Below are positions 6,491 to 58,668 of a stretch of DNA of 64,000 nucleotides, piece by piece. The translations under genes were made by a program, and so were the position numbers. How positions within the stretch are numbered: position 1 is the stretch's first letter; every line of letters starts with the position of its first letter. The notes under the pieces were generated by a model. It did not search any database and was not told where the DNA came from. It worked only from the letters and a program-made list of their open reading frames with translations. Origin of the DNA: a virus (Duplodnaviria; Caudoviricetes); IMG/VR virus record IMGVR_UViG_3300042691_041259, positions 128,001-192,000 of that record. One strand, 5' to 3'.

Positions 6491-7348
6491 TCCTTCAATT
6501 CCTTTTGTGTTTGACCGCTTATATGCCGCCGGAACGTTTTCTTCCCAGCGTGGGTCATACCAGAATCTTCTGCCAGTTTTGTCAATCACCGAATTGCCTT
6601 TACCATAAACCTGCATCCATGCACCAAATCCATCAGCAGGGACACCATTAGGGTTTACCCAGTCTTTTAGCTGTCCACCACCAAGAGTGTATGCATCTCT
6701 TACGCATAGGTGTGTGACTTTTAGAATTTCTTCTAACTGATCACGAGTAAGATCTTTTGCAATGGTAAAAGGCATAACGTTGGTTCGATAAAGAATCTCA
6801 GCTCTGAGGTAATTTCCAACTCCGTTAAAATAGCCTTGATTCATTAAGAGCTCATTTACCGGAGAGTTAAATGCTTTAGATGTTTGCCAATTTGCTCGAA
6901 CTGAGTTTGCAAACTCATTAAATTCTGTAAGAGGGCACGGACCTCTGTCAGAATTCCAGGTACCCCATCTCCACTTTGCAAAACGTCGAACATCATGTAA
7001 AACCAATAGATCTCCACGATTAGTGATTAGCCTCAAGTGAGCGTGCTTTAAGACTTCGTCTTTCTTTGGACTGTCATGCCGTACCATCGCCCAGGATCCG
7101 CTCATTCCAAGAGATACCATCAGATAACGTTTATCTTCACCGGTAGGCCCTCCTCCAACAAGCTCAAGCTCAAGCATCAATTCCTTTCCTCGGCTAGCGG
7201 CTTTAACGGTAAAAAGACCACCATCAAAGGCAGTAAGTTCAGTTTTTACTTTTGAGACGGGTGATTTTTCAATCTTCTCAAAGAATTGATTAGTAGCGAC
7301 CATGTTAATAAAGTCGCCCATGATTTTAACTTCGGCTAATTCAGGCAT
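6482..7348 (-). CDS. nei: Fpg/Nei-family DNA glycosylase/AP lyase, NEIL1-like (no zinc finger)
   Basis: N-terminal MPELAE catalytic Pro-Glu; RGKEL, LGMSG, DVRRF and H2TH motif LLMNQGYFNGVGNYLRAEILY; no C4 zinc finger at the C-terminus. Confidence 0.93.
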   Translation of the reverse strand: MPELAEVKIMGDFINMVATNQFFEKIEKSPVSKVKTELTAFDGGLFTVKAASRGKELMLELELVGGGPTGEDKRYLMVSLGMSGSWAMVRHDSPKKDEVLKHAHLRLITNRGDLLVLHDVRRFAKWRWGTWNSDRGPCPLTEFNEFANSVRANWQTSKAFNSPVNELLMNQGYFNGVGNYLRAEILYRTNVMPFTIAKDLTRDQLEEILKVTHLCVRDAYTLGGGQLKDWVNPNGVPADGFGAWMQVYGKGNSVIDKTGRRFWYDPRWEENVPAAYKRSNTKGIEGDI

Positions 7349-8067
7349 TATAGAGTATTGCTTTGTAAAGTTTGTGGCTGATATATGTTGTAGATCTTTT
7401 CGGCTAAGAGAATCATTGATTTTACATCCTTTTCACAGTATGTAGTTACACGATCAATTTCACCAGCATAAAATGTGGAATGAACCTGACTGCCATCAAT
7501 ATCATCTTTTGGAGTTGGGATTCCCATGCCAAAACAAGCCTCTTCAAATGTAACATCCAATGAAGATCCGCTTTTCCACATTTCTTTCATATCAAAGATA
7601 TTCATTTCCCAAGGCTTCTTTTCATAAGAACTTAAACAATCAGGAACTTGGATTCCATTTATTAGCAGCCGGCGGACAATCCATGGAACGTCAAAGTTTT
7701 TAATGTTCCATCCGGTAGGTATTAAACCTGCGGAGTCTGCTTTATGAAATAGATTTGCAATCTTCTTTAGCATTGTGACTTCATCACTATCAGAAATTGT
7801 TTGGATTTGCATTTCGCCATCCTTCCAGATTCCATAAGAAAGACATGCAATTCTTCCAAATTCAGGAAAGAGCGCCACATTGTTTGGGTAGTCTTTATGA
7901 AGATCGCCTGTCCAGCTCTTTCCATTGTGGAGTCGGCTGCTTTTCTTTTCAAATATACCAACCGCTTCGGGACCTTTGTCATCAATCATGGATTGAAAGT
8001 CTGGATATTGACCGCAAGTCTCAATGTCAAAAAATAAGAATTTCTTAAACTTTTCTCGTGAATACAT
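7348..8067 (-). CDS. 3'-5' exonuclease, PolB-exonuclease-like stand-alone DEDD family
   Basis: Exo I FFDIET, Exo II GWNIKNFDVPWI, Exo III YCEKDV motifs. Confidence 0.88.
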   Translation of the reverse strand: MYSREKFKKFLFFDIETCGQYPDFQSMIDDKGPEAVGIFEKKSSRLHNGKSWTGDLHKDYPNNVALFPEFGRIACLSYGIWKDGEMQIQTISDSDEVTMLKKIANLFHKADSAGLIPTGWNIKNFDVPWIVRRLLINGIQVPDCLSSYEKKPWEMNIFDMKEMWKSGSSLDVTFEEACFGMGIPTPKDDIDGSQVHSTFYAGEIDRVTTYCEKDVKSMILLAEKIYNIYQPQTLQSNTL

Positions 8068-8870: not shown

Positions 8871-9591
8871 ACTCATAACGCTCAAACTCGTCTTCAATCT
8901 CAATGATAATGGGATTTCTTACAATATCTTCGCGATTGAAGTGCATTATTCCAAATTGAGTCTTGCTTTCAAATAGTCTCATCACAATTTCAAGCGATGA
9001 CATCTTTTTGTCTTTAAGGTCAATTTGTTTGGTGTCTCCAATAATGATCATTTTGCTGTCTTCGCCAATACGAGTCATGGTAGTTCTCATATTCTTTAGA
9101 GAGATATTTTGAGCCTCGTCTACAATAATAATCGTGTTATCAATAGAACGACCTCTAATATACGCCAAAGGTAGTACCTCAATAATTTCATGCTCGATAA
9201 GTTTTTGTGTAAGAGGCTTGCCAATAATTTTGTAAAAATTGTCAAGAAAAGATTCCATAAATGGCTCCATCTTTTCTTTAAGGCTTCCTTTAAGATATCC
9301 AATGTCTTCTCCTTCTGTGACAGTTACGCTTTTGGCAAGAATAATTTTCTTGTAAAAGTTTTCCGAATTTGCTAACAGCTTGAGAGCCTCAGCACAAGCA
9401 ACATAAGTCTTGCCCGTTCCGGCGGGACCTCCGCAGATAACTATATCTTTATTTTTGATAAGCCTACTCAGAAGCTTTTGATTTTCTGTCTTTGGTAAAA
9501 AACTGACTTTTACTCTGGCAGTTGAAAATTCTTCTCTCACATATTGAGGTTTTTCTTCTGCGGATTGTTGGTTTGGTTTTCTTCTTGCCAT
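8818..9591 (-). CDS. phoH: PhoH-family ATPase
   Basis: GPAGTGKT Walker A; LAYIRGRS, IIVDEAQN, GDTKQID and DIVRNP motifs. Confidence 0.95.
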   Translation of the reverse strand: MARRKPNQQSAEEKPQYVREEFSTARVKVSFLPKTENQKLLSRLIKNKDIVICGGPAGTGKTYVACAEALKLLANSENFYKKIILAKSVTVTEGEDIGYLKGSLKEKMEPFMESFLDNFYKIIGKPLTQKLIEHEIIEVLPLAYIRGRSIDNTIIIVDEAQNISLKNMRTTMTRIGEDSKMIIIGDTKQIDLKDKKMSSLEIVMRLFESKTQFGIMHFNREDIVRNPIIIEIEDEFERYESKPSGGNPSASTSDPHS

Positions 9592-10145
9592 TATACTTTT
9601 ACGGTTTGAACTTTTACATCTTTTTCTTTCTCTAACTCTTTTGCGTGATCAAGATTTTCTTGATTGTCATCGAAAAAGATAAAGTCATAATATCCTTGTG
9701 ATATGAGGTCTTTTAGTGCCTCAGATTTCTTTTGTGCAATACTTCCTTGATATGAATACTTTGGATCATTAACAGCTATCACCAAGTCGGGGTGAATGTC
9801 TATACCATTCTCTAAAAAGAACGTTCTTATCATATTAGAAGATGAACGAGCAGTGAGTATACACACATGTACTCCTCTTCTATAAAAGTCATTGAGTTTA
9901 TCCAGTACATGAGTAATAAACTCAGCGTTCCTTAGCACGTCTAGGCTTTCAAAATCTTTAAAAGAAAGACTGTGTTTCTTGGGATCGTGTTTAAAAAAAT
10001 TAAACTCAGCAGGCGTAAGACTTTTAATTACTTTGCCTTTTCGGTCAAGAACCTGTATTTTTGCGGTAGATATAACTAACGTATCGTCCAGGTCAAAGAC
10101 CGCAAGTCTTCCTTTGGAAGTTCCTTTTATATTTGCTTCGTTCAT
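9591..10145 (-). CDS. HAD-superfamily hydrolase
   Basis: Motif I VFDLDDTL, motif II ILTAR, motif III K, motif IV FFDDNQEN. Confidence 0.8.
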   Translation of the reverse strand: MNEANIKGTSKGRLAVFDLDDTLVISTAKIQVLDRKGKVIKSLTPAEFNFFKHDPKKHSLSFKDFESLDVLRNAEFITHVLDKLNDFYRRGVHVCILTARSSSNMIRTFFLENGIDIHPDLVIAVNDPKYSYQGSIAQKKSEALKDLISQGYYDFIFFDDNQENLDHAKELEKEKDVKVQTVKV

Positions 10146-40599: not shown

Positions 40600-40641
40600 C
40601 AAAAAAAGAAAGCCCCCGATGATAGCGAGTCCCGGGGGCTT
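40600..40641 (-). terminator. Rho-independent terminator
   Basis: GC-rich stem AAGCCCC.../...GGGGCTT followed on the minus strand by TCTTTTTTT, after the nuclease gene. Confidence 0.7.
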
Positions 40642-40681: not shown

Positions 40682-41827
40682 TTATTTATTGACTTTCTTC
40701 CACTTCTCAAGTCCACGAATAACACCGTTATTGTCTTGAGCCCAGATTCCGAATCTCGCATTTTCGAAACCAAAAGTTCCTCCTTGTCCGGATCTCATTG
40801 AAACGTATAAAGCTGGCCAATACGGATCCGATTGCTTAAGTTCTAGACTACCACCTGTGATAGCAGGGTTATACATTGCGTGCCCGGTAGGCTTTATGGA
40901 ATACCCGTTTTCAAAAGGCTCCCCAGCAGGAATAAATTCAATTGCACCTTGCATGACAACCTGAACGTTATCAGCGGACCACTCTTTATTGCTAGTGGTT
41001 GCTAGGTTTCCAAAGATTGCACGAATTCCAAGATCTATGTGTTCTGGCGGTATTACCACAGCAAATTCGTTCTCTGGCCAATTCTTAGCGTTGCTCCCAA
41101 ATTTTTCCATGATTGCGTTTAAGAAATCTCTCACAAATGGATGATCTGCGCATTGGCTAATCCCGCCATACTGCTGAAAGTCTTTTGCACTCTTTCCATC
41201 TTTATGAGATATGTAGATTGAAGGATCGCCTTTGATTTCCAATATAAAGTCCGCCTTTGGAACGCCTGACACTTTATCAGCCCCTTCCATTTCAACTTCA
41301 CGCAGACCAGATGAATTATACATTTCGCCTTTTACAACAAGCCTAACAGATTCATTAGGTCCCTTGAGCTTGTCAAATTGACTTTGAATGTTTTGAAGAG
41401 CAATCGTCTCTTTTTTAAGTGAGTCTTTAGGTGACCAAAAAATTGCTTCAGGCTTGTAACCCATAAGGAATGCCACAAAGCAGATTGCTTTTTCGAATTT
41501 GTTTGTTGCGTCCTCTCCGTTTTTCAAGGCTTCCATTTCAGCGTTTAAATCTTTTCCGCTTTTTGGAAATTCTTCTAGACGGCTACCATCTTTACTGCTT
41601 CTAATTTTGATAGTTGTCGGGTAAACGGTTACGTAGGCTTCACCACTCAAAACGGCTTTTGCTCCTGGGGAAGAGAAATTCTCCCCAGTTACAATAACCT
41701 TTTCGATGTTCTTGGTATCGCCGCTATACTTGAAGTCTTCGAAAGATCTTCTCAAGGTCTCGCCGTCAACACCTTCGTTTAGAATTGATTCATTAAGAAT
41801 AAAACTTTTGTAGTCTAGCAAGCCCAT
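40682..41827 (-). CDS. PD-(D/E)XK restriction-endonuclease-like protein with capsid-targeting-like N-terminus
   Basis: PKADFILE...IYISHKDG...FQQYGG catalytic pattern; N-terminus MGLLDYKSFILNESILNE. Confidence 0.65.
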   Translation of the reverse strand: MGLLDYKSFILNESILNEGVDGETLRRSFEDFKYSGDTKNIEKVIVTGENFSSPGAKAVLSGEAYVTVYPTTIKIRSSKDGSRLEEFPKSGKDLNAEMEALKNGEDATNKFEKAICFVAFLMGYKPEAIFWSPKDSLKKETIALQNIQSQFDKLKGPNESVRLVVKGEMYNSSGLREVEMEGADKVSGVPKADFILEIKGDPSIYISHKDGKSAKDFQQYGGISQCADHPFVRDFLNAIMEKFGSNAKNWPENEFAVVIPPEHIDLGIRAIFGNLATTSNKEWSADNVQVVMQGAIEFIPAGEPFENGYSIKPTGHAMYNPAITGGSLELKQSDPYWPALYVSMRSGQGGTFGFENARFGIWAQDNNGVIRGLEKWKKVNK

Positions 41828-41890: not shown

Positions 41891-42109
41891 TCACTCTATG
41901 ATTAACTCCGGTCCGCCGATGTACTCGGTAATACCGGATTTTGCAACGGAACGAATTTCATAGTCAAAAGTGGTTCCGCGGAAGCGGTCACGCACCTTTG
42001 CTTGGGATTCCTCAATTGTTTCTGCATTTACGAGGTATGTCTCAGTAACGCTACGGAGTTTTCCGTCGTCCTCATAACTTGTCTTTACTCTTACTGTCCA
42101 ATGTGCCAT
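41891..42109 (-). CDS. DUF4494-like small protein
   Basis: WTVRVKTSYEDDGKLRSVTETYLVNAETIEESQAKV matches my recollection of DUF4494. Confidence 0.65.
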   Translation of the reverse strand: MAHWTVRVKTSYEDDGKLRSVTETYLVNAETIEESQAKVRDRFRGTTFDYEIRSVAKSGITEYIGGPELIIE

Positions 42110-42132
42110 ATATGATTGTTTTAGTGTTGCTA

Positions 42133-42140
42133 TATTTATC
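42133..42140 (-). promoter_or_regulatory. Late-promoter-like motif GATAAATA (overlaps the upstream TAA)
   Basis: 24 nt upstream of the ATG at 42109. Confidence 0.5.
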
Positions 42141-43941
42141 CTTCCAATAAGTTGTTTTCAAAAATGATTTTGCAAATTTCTCGTGAAATCTCTGTATCTG
42201 ACGGATAGTGAATTCCAGTTAATTCGCGGGTGTTGGCAATTCTTTCTCCTAGCGCTTTCAGTTCTACTGTGGCATCCGGATACTTTCTCGAGTAGTATTC
42301 GCTCATCATAAATCCAGCAAGCGCATGACCACTAGGATACGAAGCATGATTTGCATCAGTACTCAAAAGTGGGCGGATCGGCATATTGTAATACCAGCTC
42401 AACTGAAATGGTCTGGGACGATTGATTGAGTCTTTGAGAAAATAAAGAGTTGGGTCGGTTTGGCCATCTGCTTTAAAAAAGTTTTCCATGGTTTCTACAT
42501 ATCCGTACTCCGCTAGGAGATCAATAAATGATTGAGCCAAATTTGAAAAGTCTTCTACATATTTTGCAAATGAGAGTTCTTCTTGAGTTGCATTTTTCAT
42601 TTTCTCAATAAGAATTTCCATATCTTTGCGTGTAATCTCGCTGTCATTAGCAGGCGCCTCTGCACATATCTTTTCTGCAATGCCTTTTTCAATGAACCAA
42701 TTCTTAATGCGGTCATCAGGCCGTTGCGCTAACAAAAATTGTTCAGCCGCGCAATTTCCGTATCGCACCTCATTAATGTTAATAGGCGCGTCAACTACAC
42801 CATATTGCGCTTCGTAGACTTCTGTTTTCTTTTTCTTACCTTTATCAGGGCCGCCTTCATGCGGTATCATACCCTGTGCAATAAGAGAAGTTTTTACGCC
42901 AAAAGGGATTTCTTTTCCGGCTTCATATTCCGCCTTATACTTTTGTAGAGTCTCCTCTTTGTACGGTGATTCTTTCTCGTTAACAAATTCTTCAAAAGTC
43001 TGAAAGGATTCCCATGATCTCATAATTTGTTTTCCAGACCTCTCAAAGTTTCCGGAAAAAGAGAGAACATAACCTTCCGGCGTTTCAATAAGCCGGTATT
43101 TTTCTCGAGTGTTTAGTTTTTTGAACGCCTTTTCAATGTATGCCAAGTAGAGCTTTCCTCTGCGCGAGTCTCTGCCAGCCTGACCTTCTTTATCGGTCTT
43201 AGGGTTCATCTGAAATTCAGCAATTCGTACCAGACCGGGAATGCTTATTATCGTGTTAATAAAGTCCAGTGCGCATTCAGTAACAGTAGCCAACACGCGG
43301 TATTGTTCTCCCAGATTAGTCTCGGGTTCTACTTTGGCGCTTCTCGCCGATTCCACGTTAAAAGACGATCCTAGCCACATTGAAAAACTTTTGAAATCGG
43401 GCTGCTTTCGTCCAAACTGAAAGTTCCTGCCAATCAGCCCTTCAATCTTCATGTAGTAGGTCTCTCCGGTTTTGTCCGATTTGAAAGAGTACTCTACTGG
43501 CGATACTCGGGTATACATTTCATCAGTAGATCCTTGAAGCGGATTGTCTTTGGCTTTATCGCATTCCTCCTGTACCCAGCTCTTCACATTTTTATTTACT
43601 GTCCACTTGAAAGGATTTGTAGAGTCGCCGATCTCATTGAGAACACCTTCGCTCTCTAGGAGGTCTTCTCGACCCAATTGTCGATACACTTCTTTACGAG
43701 TCTTCTCCATTTTTTCAGCATAATCAGGATCATCATTCCGATTAAACACAATCTGCTGAGTAAGACTGCCACTAATCTTCTTTAAATCCTTGTCTCGAGT
43801 TTTGATAAGCCATGCTGCAAGGTCCTTGATACTCAGGTCACGAAAGCGCCCTTCTGCATCCGGCGCATCGCTGTCTTTCCACTTGGGAGCGCCTGCTGGC
43901 TTTTTTTCATTCAAAAAGTCGTTAAAAGATACGTGTTTCAT
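42136..43941 (-). CDS. Multi-module putative head protein with C-terminal PAP2/acid-phosphatase domain
   Basis: PAP2 motifs KDSINRPRP, SYPSGH and TRELTGIHYPSD; N-terminus MKHVSFNDFLNE; internal VLNE, FEEFVNE and ININE sites. Confidence 0.8.
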   Translation of the reverse strand: MKHVSFNDFLNEKKPAGAPKWKDSDAPDAEGRFRDLSIKDLAAWLIKTRDKDLKKISGSLTQQIVFNRNDDPDYAEKMEKTRKEVYRQLGREDLLESEGVLNEIGDSTNPFKWTVNKNVKSWVQEECDKAKDNPLQGSTDEMYTRVSPVEYSFKSDKTGETYYMKIEGLIGRNFQFGRKQPDFKSFSMWLGSSFNVESARSAKVEPETNLGEQYRVLATVTECALDFINTIISIPGLVRIAEFQMNPKTDKEGQAGRDSRRGKLYLAYIEKAFKKLNTREKYRLIETPEGYVLSFSGNFERSGKQIMRSWESFQTFEEFVNEKESPYKEETLQKYKAEYEAGKEIPFGVKTSLIAQGMIPHEGGPDKGKKKKTEVYEAQYGVVDAPININEVRYGNCAAEQFLLAQRPDDRIKNWFIEKGIAEKICAEAPANDSEITRKDMEILIEKMKNATQEELSFAKYVEDFSNLAQSFIDLLAEYGYVETMENFFKADGQTDPTLYFLKDSINRPRPFQLSWYYNMPIRPLLSTDANHASYPSGHALAGFMMSEYYSRKYPDATVELKALGERIANTRELTGIHYPSDTEISREICKIIFENNLLEG

Positions 43942-43947
43942 GAAATT

Positions 43948-44325
43948 TTATTGAGGATCTTTGTTTTTACATTGGCAGCCTTCTGTGCAACCACATTCTT
44001 CTGAAATAGCAACCTCCTCAGAGGGAACCTGCGGAGTTTCCACCACAGGTTCCTCGTTCTTTGGAGAAGAAAGAGCCTCTTTGATTCCTTTTTTCATATC
44101 GGAGAATCGATCAATGGATGACAATCCTAGGCAACCGAAAGCCAGGAGAGCCACCGCATCAATGATGTGTTCGTCCGGAGCTTTTTCCAGGAAGAGACAT
44201 ACACAGAGGCTTGCACCGCAAGCTACTCCTACAATTCTCTTGGATGATGGAAGTTTATTGGAATCTTCAAAGATACCAAAGATCCAATTTTTGATAGAAT
44301 CAAAAAACTTAATCAAGGCTTTCAT
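43948..44325 (-). CDS. Small two-TM membrane protein (holin-like candidate)
   Basis: SSKRIVG followed by two hydrophobic stretches and an acidic tail. Confidence 0.45.
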   Translation of the reverse strand: MKALIKFFDSIKNWIFGIFEDSNKLPSSKRIVGVACGASLCVCLFLEKAPDEHIIDAVALLAFGCLGLSSIDRFSDMKKGIKEALSSPKNEEPVVETPQVPSEEVAISEECGCTEGCQCKNKDPQ

Positions 44326-44672
44326 TTCTTTGCAGTCTTTTTATCAACTAATCTGTAAATGGTGTATTCTTCTTGACGAGCTTGATTCCGTGCAACTAAA
44401 TCTCCGGTAGGCATTATTGTGTATTCCACAGCCTCTCCAAAGTCGTTAATGCAATAGTAACGATGGTTTCGTTTTTCTACCACATTTTTTGGAATATCAA
44501 ACCCGTCCTCCCATTTTACTAGAGTAGAGTCTCCGCAAACCCACATTCCTTTATCGGGAAGAGTTCTGCGTTTAATGCCATCCCAATCAATCACTTGATT
44601 GTAGTACAGCGTGTCTTGTCCCAGCGAAAAAAGTGTCATCGCCATGAACGTCATTGAAAGAATAATTTTCAT
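44322..44672 (-). CDS. Hypothetical protein with signal peptide
   Basis: MKIILSMTFMAMTLFSLG-Q is a Sec-type signal. Confidence 0.6.
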   Translation of the reverse strand: MKIILSMTFMAMTLFSLGQDTLYYNQVIDWDGIKRRTLPDKGMWVCGDSTLVKWEDGFDIPKNVVEKRNHRYYCINDFGEAVEYTIMPTGDLVARNQARQEEYTIYRLVDKKTAKK

Positions 44673-45744
44673 TGAGTAATTGTTTAATTTTTGATGTGTA
44701 ATCCGCTACCAGTGCTTTGACCTTATCGGCCGCTGCCTGCGCTGCGGGTGTCGTAATCTTATCAAATTTACTGCTACTTGCAGCAGTTTCCATCTTTTCA
44801 ATATAGCGGTCTTTTACCGCGTTTAGTAAAGCCGTTGCGCTATTATATTTCAAAACTGTGCCAAATTCGCCAAGCTGTTCCAGAGTCTGTGCTACACCTA
44901 CAATGCCATCGCAAAGATCCTCAAATCTAGGATTTGCTGGATCAATACCTTTCCAGGAAGAGAGTTTACTGCTTTCCTTGTATGGTTTATCAGTTCCGCT
45001 TTGTTCCCAAAAGAACTTGGCAATATCATGCATAAAGGTAGAGATATTGGCTGATAGAAGTTTATCTTCTACGCCAGCCCGCTTGCTATAGGCCACCATT
45101 GAGGTTCCTGCAAACTTGGCCCGTACTCCACGAGGCTGTATGCTTAATTCCAAGACTTCTCCAAATGAGGAGTATAGGTTTCCCAGAACAAATCCTTTTA
45201 CGTTTCGGATTGGAGTCATTCTAAAAATTGCCCACTCTTTATAGCCGCTATGCGTAACTACCAAATCAACTTGTACCCAACCTTCACCTTCAGGTGTTTC
45301 CACCTGCATAATAAGCTTTAGCGAACTTGGGTCAGAGACTGATACAGTTTCTTCATAATCAATGAACGCGTAGGACTTATTTTTTAAAAATTGCAACAGC
45401 TCTTTGTTATAGAGTTTTACTGATGCAATCTCATTAGAACGCTCGTCCTTTCCATCAAGTTCCAGCGTAGGATATGCTACCATGAAGTCAATATCTCCAT
45501 AAACCTTGTCAGGCTGCGAGACGATATCATCTTCATACCAGGTTCCACTGCCGATAGGTTTGCTAAATTCCAGCGGAGGCAATTCAATGCCTTTACAGTG
45601 AATTGCAAACTCTTTCCCTATGACGTTAAGTTTCTTTACGCCATCCGCGATGATCTTGGGTTTGATGAGGGTGGACTGAGTTTTTGTGCTCGCCCATCCA
45701 CCCTCAACTAGCCATTGCTCAAAAAGTTTGACGTAATTGGCCAT
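44587..45744 (-). CDS. Pol-beta-superfamily nucleotidyltransferase with capsid-targeting-like N-terminus
   Basis: IGSG...YGDIDF and a third acidic residue in VQVDLV; N-terminus MANYVKLFEQWLVE. Confidence 0.7.
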   Translation of the reverse strand: MANYVKLFEQWLVEGGWASTKTQSTLIKPKIIADGVKKLNVIGKEFAIHCKGIELPPLEFSKPIGSGTWYEDDIVSQPDKVYGDIDFMVAYPTLELDGKDERSNEIASVKLYNKELLQFLKNKSYAFIDYEETVSVSDPSSLKLIMQVETPEGEGWVQVDLVVTHSGYKEWAIFRMTPIRNVKGFVLGNLYSSFGEVLELSIQPRGVRAKFAGTSMVAYSKRAGVEDKLLSANISTFMHDIAKFFWEQSGTDKPYKESSKLSSWKGIDPANPRFEDLCDGIVGVAQTLEQLGEFGTVLKYNSATALLNAVKDRYIEKMETAASSSKFDKITTPAAQAAADKVKALVADYTSKIKQLLNENYSFNDVHGDDTFFAGTRHAVLQSSD

Positions 45745-45751
45745 CTCAATT

Positions 45752-46303
45752 TTATTTTTCTTCAGCTACTACTACAGCAACCACCGGTTCTTCTGCGGGA
45801 GCAGATTGATCAACTACATTCTCTTGACCGTAAACATCCTGATTCACTTGGTGAGTGATTGGAACATTACGGAGAACTTCTGAACCCAACATATTATTAT
45901 AGCTTGGGTACAGAGCAAAATTTTCTGAAAGGAAGCTTTCAAAGTCCATCACAGACTCATTGGTCTTCTTTTTCTCAGCAATCTTATAGGTTTTGCCTTT
46001 AAATTCAAATTCCTCTTTTCCTTCCAGTTTAGCCTTGTGAAGAGCACTGTGGAATGCGCTTTCAGAAACCTCGTCCTCTTCAAGTTCATCCTCAACATCG
46101 TCGTTGGTATCATCTGCTTGGTCAGACGCTGGAGTATCGCTATCTTCAGCCTTTTCGGGTTCTGCTTCCGGTTCATCAGCAGTATCTTCAGCAGGTGTAT
46201 CTGTATCTGCTGCTGGAGCATTCTTGGTTTCTGGCTCTCTTTCAGAATCCGCCGCGGGATTCTCATCAGCCATGAATTCGTCGAACTTTTTTACGTGTTT
46301 CAT
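45752..46303 (-). CDS. Acidic putative head core/internal protein
   Basis: MKHVKKFDEF start, D/E/A/P low-complexity linker, ESAFHSALHKAKLEGKEEFEFKGKTYKI module and internal DFESFLSE. Confidence 0.6.
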   Translation of the reverse strand: MKHVKKFDEFMADENPAADSEREPETKNAPAADTDTPAEDTADEPEAEPEKAEDSDTPASDQADDTNDDVEDELEEDEVSESAFHSALHKAKLEGKEEFEFKGKTYKIAEKKKTNESVMDFESFLSENFALYPSYNNMLGSEVLRNVPITHQVNQDVYGQENVVDQSAPAEEPVVAVVVAEEK

Positions 46304-46334: not shown

Positions 46335-46343
46335 CTATATATC
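46335..46343 (-). promoter_or_regulatory. Late-promoter-like motif GATATATAG
   Basis: Just downstream of a terminator; heads the operon of capsid-targeting-motif genes. Confidence 0.6.
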
Positions 46344-46356
46344 TAGGAGCACCACA

Positions 46357-46385
46357 TAAAAAAAGGCTGGGCATAAACCCAGCCT
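46357..46385 (-). terminator. Rho-independent terminator
   Basis: AGGCTGGG-tttatg-CCCAGCCT followed by TTTTTT. Confidence 0.85.
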
Positions 46386-53300: not shown

Positions 53301-54203
53301 TTATTGAATTAAAAAAATTGTTTGTAATGCATTTTTGCATGCCTGCTGGGTTATTTCCCCGCTCTTAACTATTATATCCATGGTTTCTTTAAACTTCTGT
53401 GCATCCGGAGTATATTCCAAACCATCAGGGTGTATAATGAAAAGCGGTTCTTTCATATAGAAGAAGTGCGGCGGATTTTCTTCGTGATTTTCGGAAAGGA
53501 TTTTCTCGGCAAGATCAAAATGACGTTCATAGTAGTGAATGTTATCTGCGCAATGATAGTACTTTCCAAGTTGTAGATCTGGATACGTTTTACGCAAATT
53601 ATGCCACATTGTTTGCATTACCACTGCAAAGAACGGAACATCATAAGTAAAGCCATAAAACAAATCGTTAGAGCGCATTTGAACTTTCATATTCAGCTCG
53701 CCATTTCGGATCCAGAAGTTGAGGTACACGGTACAGACAAAATCTTTATTGCCTTCATACTGAAAGTCGGGATGACTAATAAAGGAAATTGCCTGGCGAC
53801 TGTTAATGTCTTTTACCAAGGATTCATATGCCCAAATCATTTGGTTTCCAAAGAGGCGGCTGCCATAGTTGGAATTGACGGTACCATCAGAATTCTGTAA
53901 GCCTTTCCAAAAGTTGGAAAAGTTATCAATGTAGTCCGTGTGACGCTCGCATGTCATATACCAGGCAAGTTCGCCTGCAAAGTATTTCCAATTAAACTCG
54001 CGATTTTGAAAATCCACAAGAGGAAACGTTGGACTGATTGTAAGCGTTTCCAGAAAAAGCTCACGGACTTTTTGTCCTCGAGGAGCTGATTCCATTCCTT
54101 CGGTTTTACATTTATGGAGAGTTTCTGCGAAAACGTCAGAAGCCGATGAAACCCCGGATTTCTTGAAGTATTTCGTCAAAATCTCTGTATTGGTCTTGAT
54201 CAT
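53301..54203 (-). CDS. dCMP hydroxymethylase-like enzyme (T4 gp42-type, thymidylate synthase superfamily)
   Basis: ELAWY, NSNYG, DFVCT (catalytic Cys), MRSNDLFYGFTYD with Asp at the base-specificity position, IHYYERHF. Confidence 0.85.
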   Translation of the reverse strand: MIKTNTEILTKYFKKSGVSSASDVFAETLHKCKTEGMESAPRGQKVRELFLETLTISPTFPLVDFQNREFNWKYFAGELAWYMTCERHTDYIDNFSNFWKGLQNSDGTVNSNYGSRLFGNQMIWAYESLVKDINSRQAISFISHPDFQYEGNKDFVCTVYLNFWIRNGELNMKVQMRSNDLFYGFTYDVPFFAVVMQTMWHNLRKTYPDLQLGKYYHCADNIHYYERHFDLAEKILSENHEENPPHFFYMKEPLFIIHPDGLEYTPDAQKFKETMDIIVKSGEITQQACKNALQTIFLIQ

Positions 54204-55415: not shown

Positions 55416-56223
55416 TCAGATATTGTGAGGCCACCCATGAAAAAGAACACCCTTCTGGGTTCTCTTTAATACGCTCTTCCGTCCAGTCCTCAATTTTTTT
55501 ATGGTTGACAGATGTATCATAGAGATGTACACTGTAGGTGATTGGCTTGATTAGTTCCGGCAAAAACTTATTGTAGATCTTCTCGGACTCAGTATAGCGA
55601 TACGGATAGAATGCTTCCCATGGAACTATTTTATAGTGCCCTTGTAGGCTTTCCCGAGCTACAAGAGTGCTGTGCATTTTAACACTATGCTCATCCCAGA
55701 AAGTATCCTTTCCTTTGCTGCGGAACCATGTATATTCTTGGTACCACTCCTGAAGGTACTTGGAATTTGGTGGGCTAATAAGAACTCCGTTTCCGTATTT
55801 CCAGTCTCGGGATCCTAGTTTTCCAACTACAAACTTTTCCTCAGCAAGGAGATCATCAAAAGACTTGATAGTAATAGTATCAAAATCCGAGTAGACTCCG
55901 CCTTGTTCATTAAGTATCTGGATCCGAAATACATCAGAGGCATGTGCTGGATGCACCAATGGGTTTCCAAAAACTTCTGTTGGCGGATCTACTAAGTGAA
56001 CTTTTACGTAGTCTGAGACTCGTTCCCAATACTTACCAGTAGGCTGTTCATTGGTGTAGAAGTTGATTTCGTAATCAGGATTGTGTTTATGAAATGACTT
56101 GGCAGCCAAGAATCTCATCAAATCCCATTCTGCGTTTCGTTTGCTTTTGTCATTGTAAAAGTAGATAAAATGCATCTTCTTATACAATGGGTTAGGTTCT
56201 TTTGTTTCAAAAAGCTTCATCAA
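55408..56223 (-). CDS. DxD-type glycosyltransferase (GT32/Gly_transf_sug-like)
   Basis: AHASDVFRIQILNEQGGVYSDFD motif. Confidence 0.85.
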   Translation of the reverse strand: MMKLFETKEPNPLYKKMHFIYFYNDKSKRNAEWDLMRFLAAKSFHKHNPDYEINFYTNEQPTGKYWERVSDYVKVHLVDPPTEVFGNPLVHPAHASDVFRIQILNEQGGVYSDFDTITIKSFDDLLAEEKFVVGKLGSRDWKYGNGVLISPPNSKYLQEWYQEYTWFRSKGKDTFWDEHSVKMHSTLVARESLQGHYKIVPWEAFYPYRYTESEKIYNKFLPELIKPITYSVHLYDTSVNHKKIEDWTEERIKENPEGCSFSWVASQYLND

Positions 56224-57425
56224 AAGAGTATTTTAGACGTTTGTTTGATCGGAGTATCTATCCGCTGTGCAATGTTGTCCTGTTTGAAGTAATCAACACC
56301 GCTGTCCTGCAAATGTCCAAAAAGCCATTTTATCACTTGCCCAGTCCAATCAGTTGCGGTATTTACCGGAACGTTTTGCGAGATTTGCTGATACCCTTCA
56401 TGCGCCAAATTAAAGTTGCCGTCTATTCCCATGAGCCACATAAGTTCTTGTACGTTCATCCATCGGTGTTCGGTTGGATGCGTTGACAATTGTAAAGTTC
56501 TGCCTACAACCGCGGTAATATCATTTGCATTAATGTGCGGAGTGCTATCCCATACTCTTTTGCGAGTTGCACGTTCTAATAATGCCAAGTATTTCTTGGA
56601 CTTTGCATCCTCCCTATTTGCAAGGTAATCCATCGCCTTAGTAATTCTTTCCTGTTCACGGAAAATGTAAATAAGAATAGAACGGTTTCCTTCCAAGGCA
56701 GCTTCATGTGGAGTTTTCTTTTCTTCCTGCGTAAGCCACTGGTACAGCGGATCTTCGGTCAGTGGATCCTTCATAAAGTACTTGTCGGTATACGGTCCAG
56801 CTGGTGTTCTTTCAATGTATGTTTCCAGCGGTAGCGTAATTCGGTTGCACCACTCCAGGATCGGAGCAGATTCAGCCTTCCAAAAGAAATAAAAAGATCG
56901 TACCCTGTTTTGCGGAATCCCATGCAGCGCTGTGGAAGTCTTGATCATACTGAAAGAATACCCGTGCTTCTTTCCAATTTCATAAAGTTTGTCCGCAACT
57001 TTCTTTCCTAATGCCGTATAGAGTCCAGGCGCGTTTTCACCCCAGAGAACTTTTGGCTTTACATTCTCGAGAACATACTCGGAAGACTTATACATCCATT
57101 CGTTTTGGATTGCATCCGCTCCACGAGCCTTTTCGCTACCTTCCTTTGTTGATGAATTCAATGCAGATAACCCTGCGCATGGACACAGACTTACTACCAT
57201 GTCTACGCCTTCAATTTCCTCATTAAAGGGACGGTCCCAAGCAATTCCGCTGTCTTCTATCAGGCCGTAAGGAATTTCTGGAAAGTTTGCCCGACAGTGA
57301 CTGTCATTGCTTTGGAAAGCATCGTAAGAGAGTATATACTCTGGATCTTTACCGGTCGCCCGTTTGGCTCCCAGGACCATCCCTCCAATGAGAGGTACTA
57401 TAGCTGCATATTTAAAAGTTTCCAT
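56220..57425 (-). CDS. C5-cytosine methyltransferase-like protein, paralog 2 (atypical SAM motifs)
   Basis: CPCAGLS (IV), GENAPGL (VI), GIPQNRVR (VIII), SQNVP (X); motif I reads IVPLIGG. Confidence 0.8.
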   Translation of the reverse strand: METFKYAAIVPLIGGMVLGAKRATGKDPEYILSYDAFQSNDSHCRANFPEIPYGLIEDSGIAWDRPFNEEIEGVDMVVSLCPCAGLSALNSSTKEGSEKARGADAIQNEWMYKSSEYVLENVKPKVLWGENAPGLYTALGKKVADKLYEIGKKHGYSFSMIKTSTALHGIPQNRVRSFYFFWKAESAPILEWCNRITLPLETYIERTPAGPYTDKYFMKDPLTEDPLYQWLTQEEKKTPHEAALEGNRSILIYIFREQERITKAMDYLANREDAKSKKYLALLERATRKRVWDSTPHINANDITAVVGRTLQLSTHPTEHRWMNVQELMWLMGIDGNFNLAHEGYQQISQNVPVNTATDWTGQVIKWLFGHLQDSGVDYFKQDNIAQRIDTPIKQTSKILF

Positions 57426-57426
57426 A

Positions 57427-58668
57427 TCAGAATAGACAAGTTGATTTTTCTTTCACATCAGCTTTTGTAGCTGAGAGATTGCTTTGTCGAAAAAACTTCT
57501 GACCTGAGGACGGAAGTTCTCCTTTAATGTATTTTACTACTTCCAAAGTCCAGTCTCGAGCAGTAGCGGTGGGTACATTTTGTGCAATGTGGTTCCACTG
57601 GTTTTTATCCAGGAGTTCAAAGTCATGAGGTAATCCCATAAGGTGCATATACTCGCGAATTGTAATGAACCGCTTTTCTTCGGGATGCGATCCACAGATC
57701 ATGTTTTTAGAGATCACTGCATTAAAATGGTCGTTTCCTAATCTTGGAGAAACATCCCAAAAGCCTTTTCCTTCGGCAAGTTTCTTTTTAATGTGGTGTA
57801 ATGATCGAGCATCCACAGATCCAGGCAAAACTTTATCTGTGTACTCAATACATTCGTCCAGCCAGCCGTTCTTTACAATATACCAGTTCATGGTACGGCT
57901 GTCCTCGTCGGCCATCATTTCTTTCCAGGAAACTCCTTTAACCTCTTCCACAAACTTAATGATTGGGAGACCTTCAAGTTTCCAGTTGTTAAAAGTTTCC
58001 ATTAGGGAAGCATCCTTTGGAACTTCTGACAGGTATTCACCAAGTTTCTTATGTTCACGATTGTAAGTGTTAAGAACTGGTGCGTACTCACTGTCCCAGA
58101 AGAAGTAGAATGTCCGTGAGCGTTCTTGTGGAATGCCATGGCGGATTGTAGAAGTTTTCATCAAACTCATACTGTAACCATTTTCTTGTGCAATCTCAAA
58201 AAGCTTGTCCACCACACCTTTACCAACTTCTCCATAGAGCCCTGGAGCGTTTTCTCCAAAAAATACTCTGGGTTTAAGAGTTCCCAAAACAAATCGAGCA
58301 GAACGATACATCCACTCATTCTGTGCAGCGTCGGCTCCTCGCGATTTGCTGGTACCACCCTTTGAGTAATTAAGCATTGAAAGACCTGCACACGGACAAG
58401 TGGTACTTACAAAGTCCAATCGATCCTCGGTCACCACCGGCAGGCCGCCGTCCTCATCAAGATTGATGTACGGAACATCTGGCCAATATGCCCTTAGGTG
58501 TTTTTCATTTTCCTGGAACCCATTGTAAGTGTACAAGGCAATTGGCTTATTACCAGTTGCCATTGAGTTTCCAATAGTAAACCCGCCAATGAGTGGCACT
58601 ATTGAAGCATAACGGACTTCTCGTCCATCAATTAGAGCTCCAGCGCTTTCGTTATCGTTTCCTTCCAT
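57427..58668 (-). CDS. C5-cytosine methyltransferase-like protein, paralog 1 (atypical SAM motifs)
   Basis: CPCAGLS, GENAPGL, GIPQERSR, TIREYMHLMGLP (IX), AQNVP; motif I reads IVPLIGG. Confidence 0.8.
   Translation of the reverse strand: MEGNDNESAGALIDGREVRYASIVPLIGGFTIGNSMATGNKPIALYTYNGFQENEKHLRAYWPDVPYINLDEDGGLPVVTEDRLDFVSTTCPCAGLSMLNYSKGGTSKSRGADAAQNEWMYRSARFVLGTLKPRVFFGENAPGLYGEVGKGVVDKLFEIAQENGYSMSLMKTSTIRHGIPQERSRTFYFFWDSEYAPVLNTYNREHKKLGEYLSEVPKDASLMETFNNWKLEGLPIIKFVEEVKGVSWKEMMADEDSRTMNWYIVKNGWLDECIEYTDKVLPGSVDARSLHHIKKKLAEGKGFWDVSPRLGNDHFNAVISKNMICGSHPEEKRFITIREYMHLMGLPHDFELLDKNQWNHIAQNVPTATARDWTLEVVKYIKGELPSSGQKFFRQSNLSATKADVKEKSTCLF

Follow-up and report, generated by a model that had tools for sequence, protein, structure and literature searches.

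A predicted CviJI-type endonuclease with a T4-like, putatively capsid-targeting leader in a T4-type phage with a putative cytosine-hypermodification locus

We analyzed a stretch of 64,000 nucleotides of a virus (Duplodnaviria; Caudoviricetes), which represents bases 128001–192000 of the 202.5-kb record IMGVR_UViG_3300042691_041259 (G000; estimated completeness of ~66%) and is referred to below as the window. Every large gene of the window is encoded on the minus strand, and one of them, a single open frame at 40682..41827 (P0001), encodes a protein of 381 amino acids that we predict, with high confidence, to be an active DNA endonuclease. Its predicted features constitute what appears to be a new combination: a solitary endonuclease of the CviJI type, putatively tagged for the capsid, in a T4-type phage whose DNA is probably hypermodified. 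Our preferred explanation for this combination is that the tagged enzyme is packaged and then injected beside modified phage DNA to attack unmodified DNA; taken as a whole, we give this explanation slightly less than an even chance. A first-pass annotation, made from the letters and their translations, had interpreted the gene as a virion-delivered, restriction-like nuclease paired with genome hypermodification, and this interpretation as a whole is partly supported by our results.

The protein begins with an 18-residue leader (residues 1–18; 41774..41827, minus strand). This leader is followed by a region of three helices that was delimited from the secondary structure of the model and from alignment A1, and that is present in the closer orthologs only (residues 20–60; 41648..41770, minus strand). 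It precedes an endonuclease body of two domains (residues 63–364; 40736..41641, minus strand), which was delimited from structural matches to MspI, HinP1I, HhaI, R.CviJI, and Nt.CviQII. We built a model with AlphaFold2 from an alignment of 34 sequences and assigned its secondary structure with DSSP. The mean predicted local distance difference test (pLDDT) of the model is 86.8, with values below 50 for residues 1–19. The order of the secondary structure elements (helix 135–155, strands 175–185, 194–198, and 204–209, helix 230–243, and strand 254–258), together with the fact that the top structural matches are PD-(D/E)XK enzymes, indicates that the protein has the alpha-beta-beta-beta-alpha-beta topology of the PD-(D/E)XK core. 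The predicted metal-binding residue E140 (41408..41410, minus strand) is located on the first core helix and is invariant in alignments A1 and A2, while D193 begins the second strand and S207-H-K209 ends the third one. The motif PKADFILE...ISHK reported by the first-pass annotation is present: positions 41201..41260 of the minus strand translate to PKADFILEIKGDPSIYISHK, which contains D193, S207, and K209 and which we interpret as a PD...SxK variant of the PD-(D/E)XK motif. Across 127 representatives of the family that share 20–50% identity, just five columns are invariant, namely E140, D193, S207, K209, and G273.

We compared this model to 48,161 solved chains using VIA-align. The three best matches were MspI (Z = 6.6; 178 residues), HinP1I (Z = 6.2), and HhaI (Z = 5.9), far above the next-best chain (Z = 3.3). 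These three alignments comprise 148–178 residues with root-mean-square deviations of 4.1–4.5 and span both the catalytic and the recognition domains, with the caveat that a Z-score below 8 may arise from a common arrangement. When searching the PDB with Foldseek, HinP1I was first but weak (E = 0.024) and MspI was third, and the nearest named clusters in a language-model comparison were those of HinP1I, HaeIII, and MspI. MspI (C^CGG), HinP1I (G^CGC), and HhaI (GCG^C) form a structural group of monomeric 4-bp cutters with a helix-borne glutamate and an (S/T/A)-D motif, and their structure papers describe monomers with one active site each. In contrast to the phage protein, these enzymes are bacterial and are encoded alongside a methyltransferase, and no sequence similarity between them and the phage protein is detectable. 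These results bear out the nuclease fold by structure prediction. The assignment of the protein to the PD-(D/E)XK superfamily is well supported; it would be a metal-dependent enzyme of a virus-only family that may share the two-domain architecture of MspI, HinP1I, and HhaI.

Among viral models, the best annotated structural matches were found in chloroviruses. A Foldseek search of BFVD yielded 14 matches at E ≤ 0.001, which include proteins of cyanophages and of a Stenotrophomonas phage as well as three chlorovirus enzymes: CviJI (P52283; E = 1.7e-10; probability 1.00; 265 columns at 20% identity), Nt.CviQII (Q0ZLZ5; E = 1.9e-7; probability 1.00), and an endonuclease of chlorovirus NYs-1 that is unnamed in its entry (M1IJF5; E = 5.4e-7; probability 1.00) and that we presume to be possibly Nt.CviPII. 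By these matches, the phage protein is homologous to the CviJI/Nt.CviQII group, through a link that is structure-based only. At the sequence level, neither profile A2 nor the cyanophage homolog labeled CviJI, when used as queries, retrieved a named chlorovirus protein. The label "CviJI" had already been given by the GenBank depositor to the homolog of cyanophage S-CAM7. The first-pass annotation had mentioned chloroviruses as an analogy, and the comparison of models shows that their enzymes and the phage protein are in fact related.

The chlorovirus group of CviJI (RG^CY), Nt.CviQII, and Nt.CviPII is virus-encoded like the phage protein, and both resemblances and differences can be drawn between the two systems. 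Chloroviruses package restriction endonucleases, and not the matching methyltransferases, and the host DNA is degraded within minutes (PMC7019647). The phage system differs from that of chloroviruses by its bacterial host and its T4-type tailed particle, and its nuclease has, in addition to the T4-type leader, an N-terminal extension of three helices. The chlorovirus enzymes also have companion methyltransferases, as in the CviPII system where the methyltransferase is adjacent, whereas none adjoins the phage nuclease; its likely protection would be the wholesale replacement of cytosine by glycosylated hydroxymethylcytosine (hmC).

The matches to chloroviruses also suggest another possible activity. 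The enzyme could be a strand-specific nickase similar to Nt.CviQII, packaged or not, which would nick unmodified DNA at very short sites or at specific places. The presence of Nt.CviQII and of the unnamed NYs-1 endonuclease among the BFVD matches is consistent with this alternative, as is the monomeric nature of the closest solved structures, each of which has one active site. Moreover, Nt.CviQII (R^AG) and Nt.CviPII (^CCD) are genuine nicking enzymes that act at frequent sites (PMC3017599). Against this, the better structural match is R.CviJI, a double-strand cutter, and nicking cannot be separated from sequential double-strand cutting based on sequence. We regard a dedicated nickase as rather unlikely.

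We identified 65 close homologs of the nuclease and 327 representatives of clusters defined at 50% identity, which are viral without exception, and the nearest language-model clusters are also 99–100% viral. The cultured carriers belong to the T4 superfamily: cyanophages S-T4, S-CAM7, S-SCSM2R, and S-8S56, Sinorhizobium phages phiM12, phiM7, phiM19, and phiN3, and Stenotrophomonas phage DLP6. Uncultured T4-type carriers include G001 (93% complete), G002, and G003 (100% complete each), all three with leaderless homologs. In cyanophages, the homologs are located among replication genes. The only match of the nuclease in PHROGs is phrog_13937, whose function is given there as unknown, and neither PF09208 (Endonuc-MspI) nor PF11463 (R-HINP1I) matched the nuclease or its 127 relatives. 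The phage of the window is itself T4-type: its record encodes a homolog of the T4 portal (E = 2e-65), a tail sheath, and a baseplate hub resembling gp5, and the contig ends within the gene for gp23, whose C-terminal part is present. We observed no methyltransferase adjoining the homologs of phiM12, DLP6, S-T4, S-CAM7, and the metagenomic orthologs. The same holds for the gene of the window, as the first-pass annotation had stated, since the flanks comprise DUF4494-like, PAP2-like, and Nudix genes and small open reading frames (Pfam). The publications on DLP6 and PhiM9 contained nothing usable on DNA modification or on the presence of the homologs in virions.

We then analyzed the N-terminus of the nuclease, which the first-pass annotation had described as a doubled ILNE leader resembling capsid-targeting sequences. 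Positions 41774–41827 of the minus strand translate to MGLLDYKSFILNESILNE, which contains two LNE sites within the first 18 residues. The leader presents the layout Y6-x-x-F9-I10 followed by E13, then a second L-N-E up to E18, so that its two hydrophobic-x-Glu sites end at E13 and E18. In T4, the proteins IPI, IPII, IPIII, and Alt carry an N-terminal tag of 10–18 residues of the form aromatic-x-x-Phe-(Ile/Leu)-x-Glu, as also found in this record, and we verified in the sequences that the N-terminus of ipII and ipIII is MKTYQEFIAE. Scanning the open reading frames of the entire 202.5-kb record, we identified 17 further proteins that begin with variants of MKHVKTFESFLNE, one of which (7348–8067 of the window) scored just 5.0 and is apparently a chance match; overall, ~17–24 proteins seem to be tagged. 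Three of the 17 are encoded in the same transcription unit as the nuclease.

To score these leaders, we used a position matrix derived from 11 leaders of the record, leaving out the nuclease, and internal windows of proteins as a null. With this matrix, the T4 sequence TYQEFIAE scored 15.7 bits. The best 8-mer of the nuclease, LNESILNE, scored 9.1 bits, relative to a 99th percentile of 6.25 and a maximum of 10.6 for the null. Paired hydrophobic-x-Glu sites (E12/13 and E17/18) were conserved in 22 of the 25 full-length orthologs (38–83% identity) and in only 4.7% of internal 24-aa windows, and some orthologs present the exact T4 spacing (e.g., MSLLNYNDFLNE). The invariance of the four catalytic residues across the 127 representatives and the conservation of the two glutamate sites in these orthologs indicate that neither the nuclease motif nor the leader is likely due to chance. 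The leader thus holds up as a genuine and conserved feature that resembles the T4 tag, in support of the first-pass description of a capsid-targeting-like sequence.

The leader is variably present across the family. Using the same matrix, leader-like N-termini were found in 54 of 224 family members relative to ~2 expected, with a score threshold that mislabels many visibly tagged N-termini. Leaderless members start with MANLS..EL.KYDWR, precisely where the tagged ones continue past the glutamate (e.g., MKSFKAFITE|ASLSTTQL, MKLNEFILLE|AALSIPQI, and MVLQLLNILNE|MASLSIPQL). In the homologs P0195 and P0137, a methionine directly follows the last glutamate of the leader (…NILNE-MASLS… and …KLDE-MAALS…), as if the tag had been placed in front of a start codon that existed before it. 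The leader would look like a module within the family, similar to a detachable address label. In the nuclease, the predicted mature N-terminus, Gly19, is also the position where confident folding of the model starts. We attempted to count gains and losses of the leader on a tree and obtained 22 changes for 26 labeled rows, a result that does not differ from shuffled data; this analysis was rejected because the threshold mislabels rows. A signal peptide was ruled out, since the N-terminus is not hydrophobic.

The natural cargo of T4 consists of small basic proteins, the anti-restriction inhibitor IPI*, and an ADP-ribosyltransferase, none of which is a nuclease, unlike the cargo predicted here. 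The tag of our phage also differs from that of T4 in that its cleavage end is duplicated in the nuclease and that it marks ~17–24 proteins. In the T4 tag, residues 4 and 7 direct targeting while residues 8 and 10 are involved in cleavage by gp21, and redundant cleavage sites are known from the propeptides of phiKZ-type phages (PMC9026906). The internal proteins of T4 are associated with DNA and have no enzymatic activity (PMC3012670). In engineered T4, the heads took up and delivered fusions of IPIII or its tag to EcoRI and to staphylococcal nuclease (PMC9026906, PMC3012670), which indicates that a nuclease inside a head filled with glucosylated hmC DNA is physically workable. Our literature search found no naturally packaged phage endonuclease of this kind. 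Based on the leader, we infer that packaging of the nuclease into the virion is somewhat favored over its absence from the particle.

A second component of the proposed system is the modification of the phage DNA. The locus at 53–63 kb encodes an enzyme of the thymidylate synthase (TS) fold, a kinase, several glycosyltransferases (including one AGT-like), a sugar-nucleotidyltransferase, and two C5-methyltransferase-like proteins. Its first gene (53301..54203, minus strand) encodes the TS-fold enzyme, which matches T4 dCMP hydroxymethylase and was identified as a gp42-like pyrimidine hydroxymethylase with Pfam and by the aspartate at the position of T4 D179. In a three-way alignment, this aspartate corresponds to D179 of T4 gp42, whereas the phage's own ThyA presents an asparagine. 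The presence of aspartate at this position suggests that the substrate of the gp42-like enzyme is cytosine and not uracil. Since the record encodes a canonical ThyA (9045–10139, minus strand; E = 3e-99) in addition to the gp42-like enzyme, which is divergent (E = 2e-18), the synthesis of thymidylate and the hydroxymethylation of cytosine are apparently distinct functions. The gp42-like enzyme supports the presence of hmC in the phage DNA, with genes for sugars in the same locus. The only methyltransferase-like genes of the 202.5-kb record are the two of C5 type (56220–58668); no N6/N4-type or Dam-type methyltransferase was found in this record, which is ~66% complete.

The composition of the genome is also informative. 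We observed that palindromes made of A and T only are strongly avoided in the record (TTATAA: 1 versus 43 expected; ATTAAT: 20 versus 82; AATATT: 32 versus 90), while no 4-mer or 6-mer palindrome containing C or G is comparably depleted, the lowest ratio being 0.69 for CATG. Such a bias fits the modification of cytosines, because modified cytosines would already shield C-containing sites from host restriction. We searched for the recognition site of the nuclease using the same signal of avoidance, and no 4-bp palindrome is absent from G000, G002, or G003; the depletion of certain 6-mers could just as well be due to restriction by the host. In G002 (L100–L109; 188 kb; complete), CTTAAG is wholly absent relative to ~36 expected, which is possibly unrelated to the nuclease. 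In G003 (L110–L118; 167 kb; complete), GGCC is found at 98 sites relative to 356 expected (0.28), and this depletion probably represents the avoidance of a host system of the HaeIII type.

All the characterized relatives of the nuclease recognize sites that contain C or G, and MspI is blocked by glucosylated hmC. These two points make the resistance of the phage DNA to the nuclease plausible, and if the nuclease is active, we consider it reasonably probable that the phage's own DNA is spared because it is modified. A similar strategy is found in T4 with endonucleases II (denA) and IV (denB). Their folds are unrelated to that of the nuclease, and they are early proteins made after infection, which are neither tagged nor packaged. 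The logic proposed for our phage is the same as theirs, with cytosine DNA attacked and the hmC DNA of the phage spared (PMC2984593).

Several results weigh against this interpretation of a packaged and self-sparing nuclease. First, the nuclease did not match any Pfam family at E ≤ 1, nor did its 127 relatives at E ≤ 0.01; it did not match NCBIfam either, and no PDB sequence was matched using the single sequence or profiles A1 and A2. Z-scores of about 6 are modest when taken alone. Second, a serine replaces the acidic residue at the first position of (D/E)xK. We presume that HinP1I (SD...QxK) and MspI (TD...NxK) also present a non-acidic residue at this position and are nevertheless active, in which case the combination of AD...SxK with E140 would fit the motif logic of these two enzymes, where a non-acidic residue precedes x-K. 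Third, the leader of the nuclease is weaker than those of its neighbors and is one residue longer than the T4 spacing Y-x-x-F-I-x-E. Fourth, gp21 (PF03420) was not found in the record of our phage, but this record ends inside gp23, and in T4 gene 21 is located next to gene 23; in favor of packaging, a gp21-type prohead protease is present in each of the family-member carriers G001, G002, and G003. Finally, the same three genomes, whose homologs are leaderless, contain no methyltransferase of PF00145, PF01555, or PF02086, and G002 and G003 contain no TS-fold enzyme. Cytosine hypermodification is consequently not required by the family. The pairing of the nuclease with hypermodification, as advanced by the first-pass annotation, may therefore apply to this phage, where the hmC and sugar locus is real, but does not extend to the whole family. 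The records with tagged homologs, which we inspected for co-occurrence of the tag and a gp42-like enzyme, were uninformative, being only 8–30% complete.

The genomic setting of the nuclease gene resembles that of a late-type transcription unit. The gene is the last of a 5.7-kb unit of seven genes, four of which are tagged. A terminator-like hairpin with a U-run follows the stop codon of the nuclease and marks the end of the unit (40601..40640, minus strand; −18.3 kcal/mol; z = −3.2), and another terminator-like hairpin ends the preceding unit (46364..46385, minus strand; −17.4 kcal/mol; z = −4.95). There is no terminator-like site on the coding strand inside the nuclease unit. The unit is preceded by a promoter-like motif, GATATATAG, at a distance of 40 nt from its first gene (46335..46343, minus strand). 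This motif is found in 18 copies on the coding strand versus 2 on the opposite one, and for 16 of the 18 coding-strand copies in the record, a start codon follows within 100 nt, mostly at 24–45 nt. Copies are also located ahead of the genes for the tail sheath and for a head-closure-like protein, of the first baseplate gene, and of several leader-bearing genes, which suggests that it may act as a late-type promoter. A second motif, (G)ATAAATA, is also enriched upstream of genes in the record. In contrast, we found no enrichment of the T4 late promoter, TATAAATA, across the window (3 copies versus 4.1 expected).

The six genes upstream of the nuclease (41891..46303, minus strand) were characterized from their N-termini and with Pfam. 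Three of them bear a leader, as recognized from their N-termini: the gene at 45752–46303 (minus strand), a gene encoding a 385-aa protein that starts with MANYVKLFEQWLVE and has no Pfam match (44587–45744, minus strand), and a gene encoding a 601-aa protein with a C-terminal PAP2-like phosphatase domain (42136–43941, minus strand; 26.7 bits for a Pfam cut-off of 27.2 bits). The 385-aa protein contains a GS...GDIDF pattern that resembles nucleotidyltransferases of the Pol-beta type. Directly upstream of the nuclease is a DUF4494-like gene of 72 aa (41891–42109, minus strand; Pfam). A DUF4494-like gene is also found directly upstream of the nuclease in a 48%-identical relative (L087, 9765–9986; L088, 6862–7083), and the order DUF4494-like gene, nuclease, Nudix, and baseplate is conserved in this relative.

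The evidence from the leader and from the transcription unit bears on a different scenario, in which the same active endonuclease is not packaged. The enzyme would then act within the infected cell at a late stage, like the T4 endonucleases II and IV, either breaking down host DNA that contains cytosine to salvage nucleotides or destroying the unmodified DNA of superinfecting phages. The N-terminal motif would be specific to the lineage and would not sort the nuclease. The relative weakness of its leader is in line with this scenario, as is the fact that many members of the family are leaderless, including those of cultured cyanophages and of G001–G003. In addition, denA, denB, and ndd are missing from T4-like cyanophages, which are presumed to use an undescribed route of host DNA degradation (PMC2984593). 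In contrast, the leader and both of its glutamate sites are maintained in 22 of the 25 orthologs down to ~40% identity, four of the seven genes of the unit are tagged, and the motif ahead of the unit is common to structural genes. Moreover, residues 1–19 are modeled as disordered and detachable. Overall, we find this scenario improbable, at a level comparable to that of the nickase, and we retain packaging as the preferred interpretation.

Two further explanations appear very improbable. The nuclease gene could be a selfish, mobile gene of the homing type that spreads among T4-type phages with no benefit to the phage. Its patchy distribution in T4-type phages, the lack of a partner methyltransferase, and the location among replication genes in cyanophages would be expected for such an element. 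On the other hand, the surrounding gene order is conserved at 48% identity, the family is large with four invariant catalytic residues, the characterized relatives recognize very short sites (RGCY and R^AG) and not long homing sites, and the gene presents a leader within a late-type operon. Equally improbable is a non-catalytic internal head protein with a DNA-binding nuclease fold, or an enzyme acting on RNA or another substrate: the serine in place of the usual acidic residue of (D/E)xK and the precedent of the T4 internal proteins would favor it, but E140, D193, S207, and K209 are strictly conserved across the 127 representatives at 20–50% identity, and HinP1I (QxK) and MspI (NxK) are presumably active despite their non-acidic residue.

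Under the preferred explanation of a packaged and injected endonuclease, the nuclease would be produced late in infection together with the other tagged proteins of its unit, and its 18-residue T4-type leader would take it into the core of the prohead. There, a prohead protease of the gp21 type would remove this leader by cleavage behind Glu13 and/or Glu18, and the enzyme in its mature form (~residues 19–381) would sit beside the phage DNA containing glycosylated hmC, which it would be unable to cut, and would enter the next cell together with this DNA. In that cell, it would cut or nick unmodified DNA of the host or of competitors at short and frequent sites. In this scheme, packaging, processing of the leader, sequence specificity, and the sparing of modified DNA are all steps that we infer.

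We know of no earlier natural case of a phage that packages a restriction-type nuclease, and to our knowledge this would be the first one if our interpretation is correct. More generally, we tentatively propose that T4-type hypermodified phages naturally achieve what the laboratory of Black engineered, by packaging and injecting a frequent-cutting endonuclease or nickase of the CviJI type, which would shred the DNA of the host or of rivals before the expression of phage genes. The strategy of chloroviruses, which relies on an injected endonuclease and a modified genome, would then extend to bacterial viruses. An enzyme family would be common to tailed phages and algal giant viruses, and virion-delivered restriction would span the viruses of bacteria and eukaryotes. 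Based on our model, a fold and catalytic residues can also be provisionally assigned to the CviJI group; CviJI itself was placed in an "unknown superfamily", with no known fold, when type II enzymes were classified in 2008 (PMC2441816). The hundreds of uncharacterized viral relatives may represent useful frequent cutters or nickases. The nuclease is further a candidate for the undescribed degradation of host DNA in T4-like phages without denA and denB (PMC2984593). Finally, the costly hypermodification of phage DNA would gain a purpose beyond the evasion of host restriction, namely allowing the phage to carry its own weapon.

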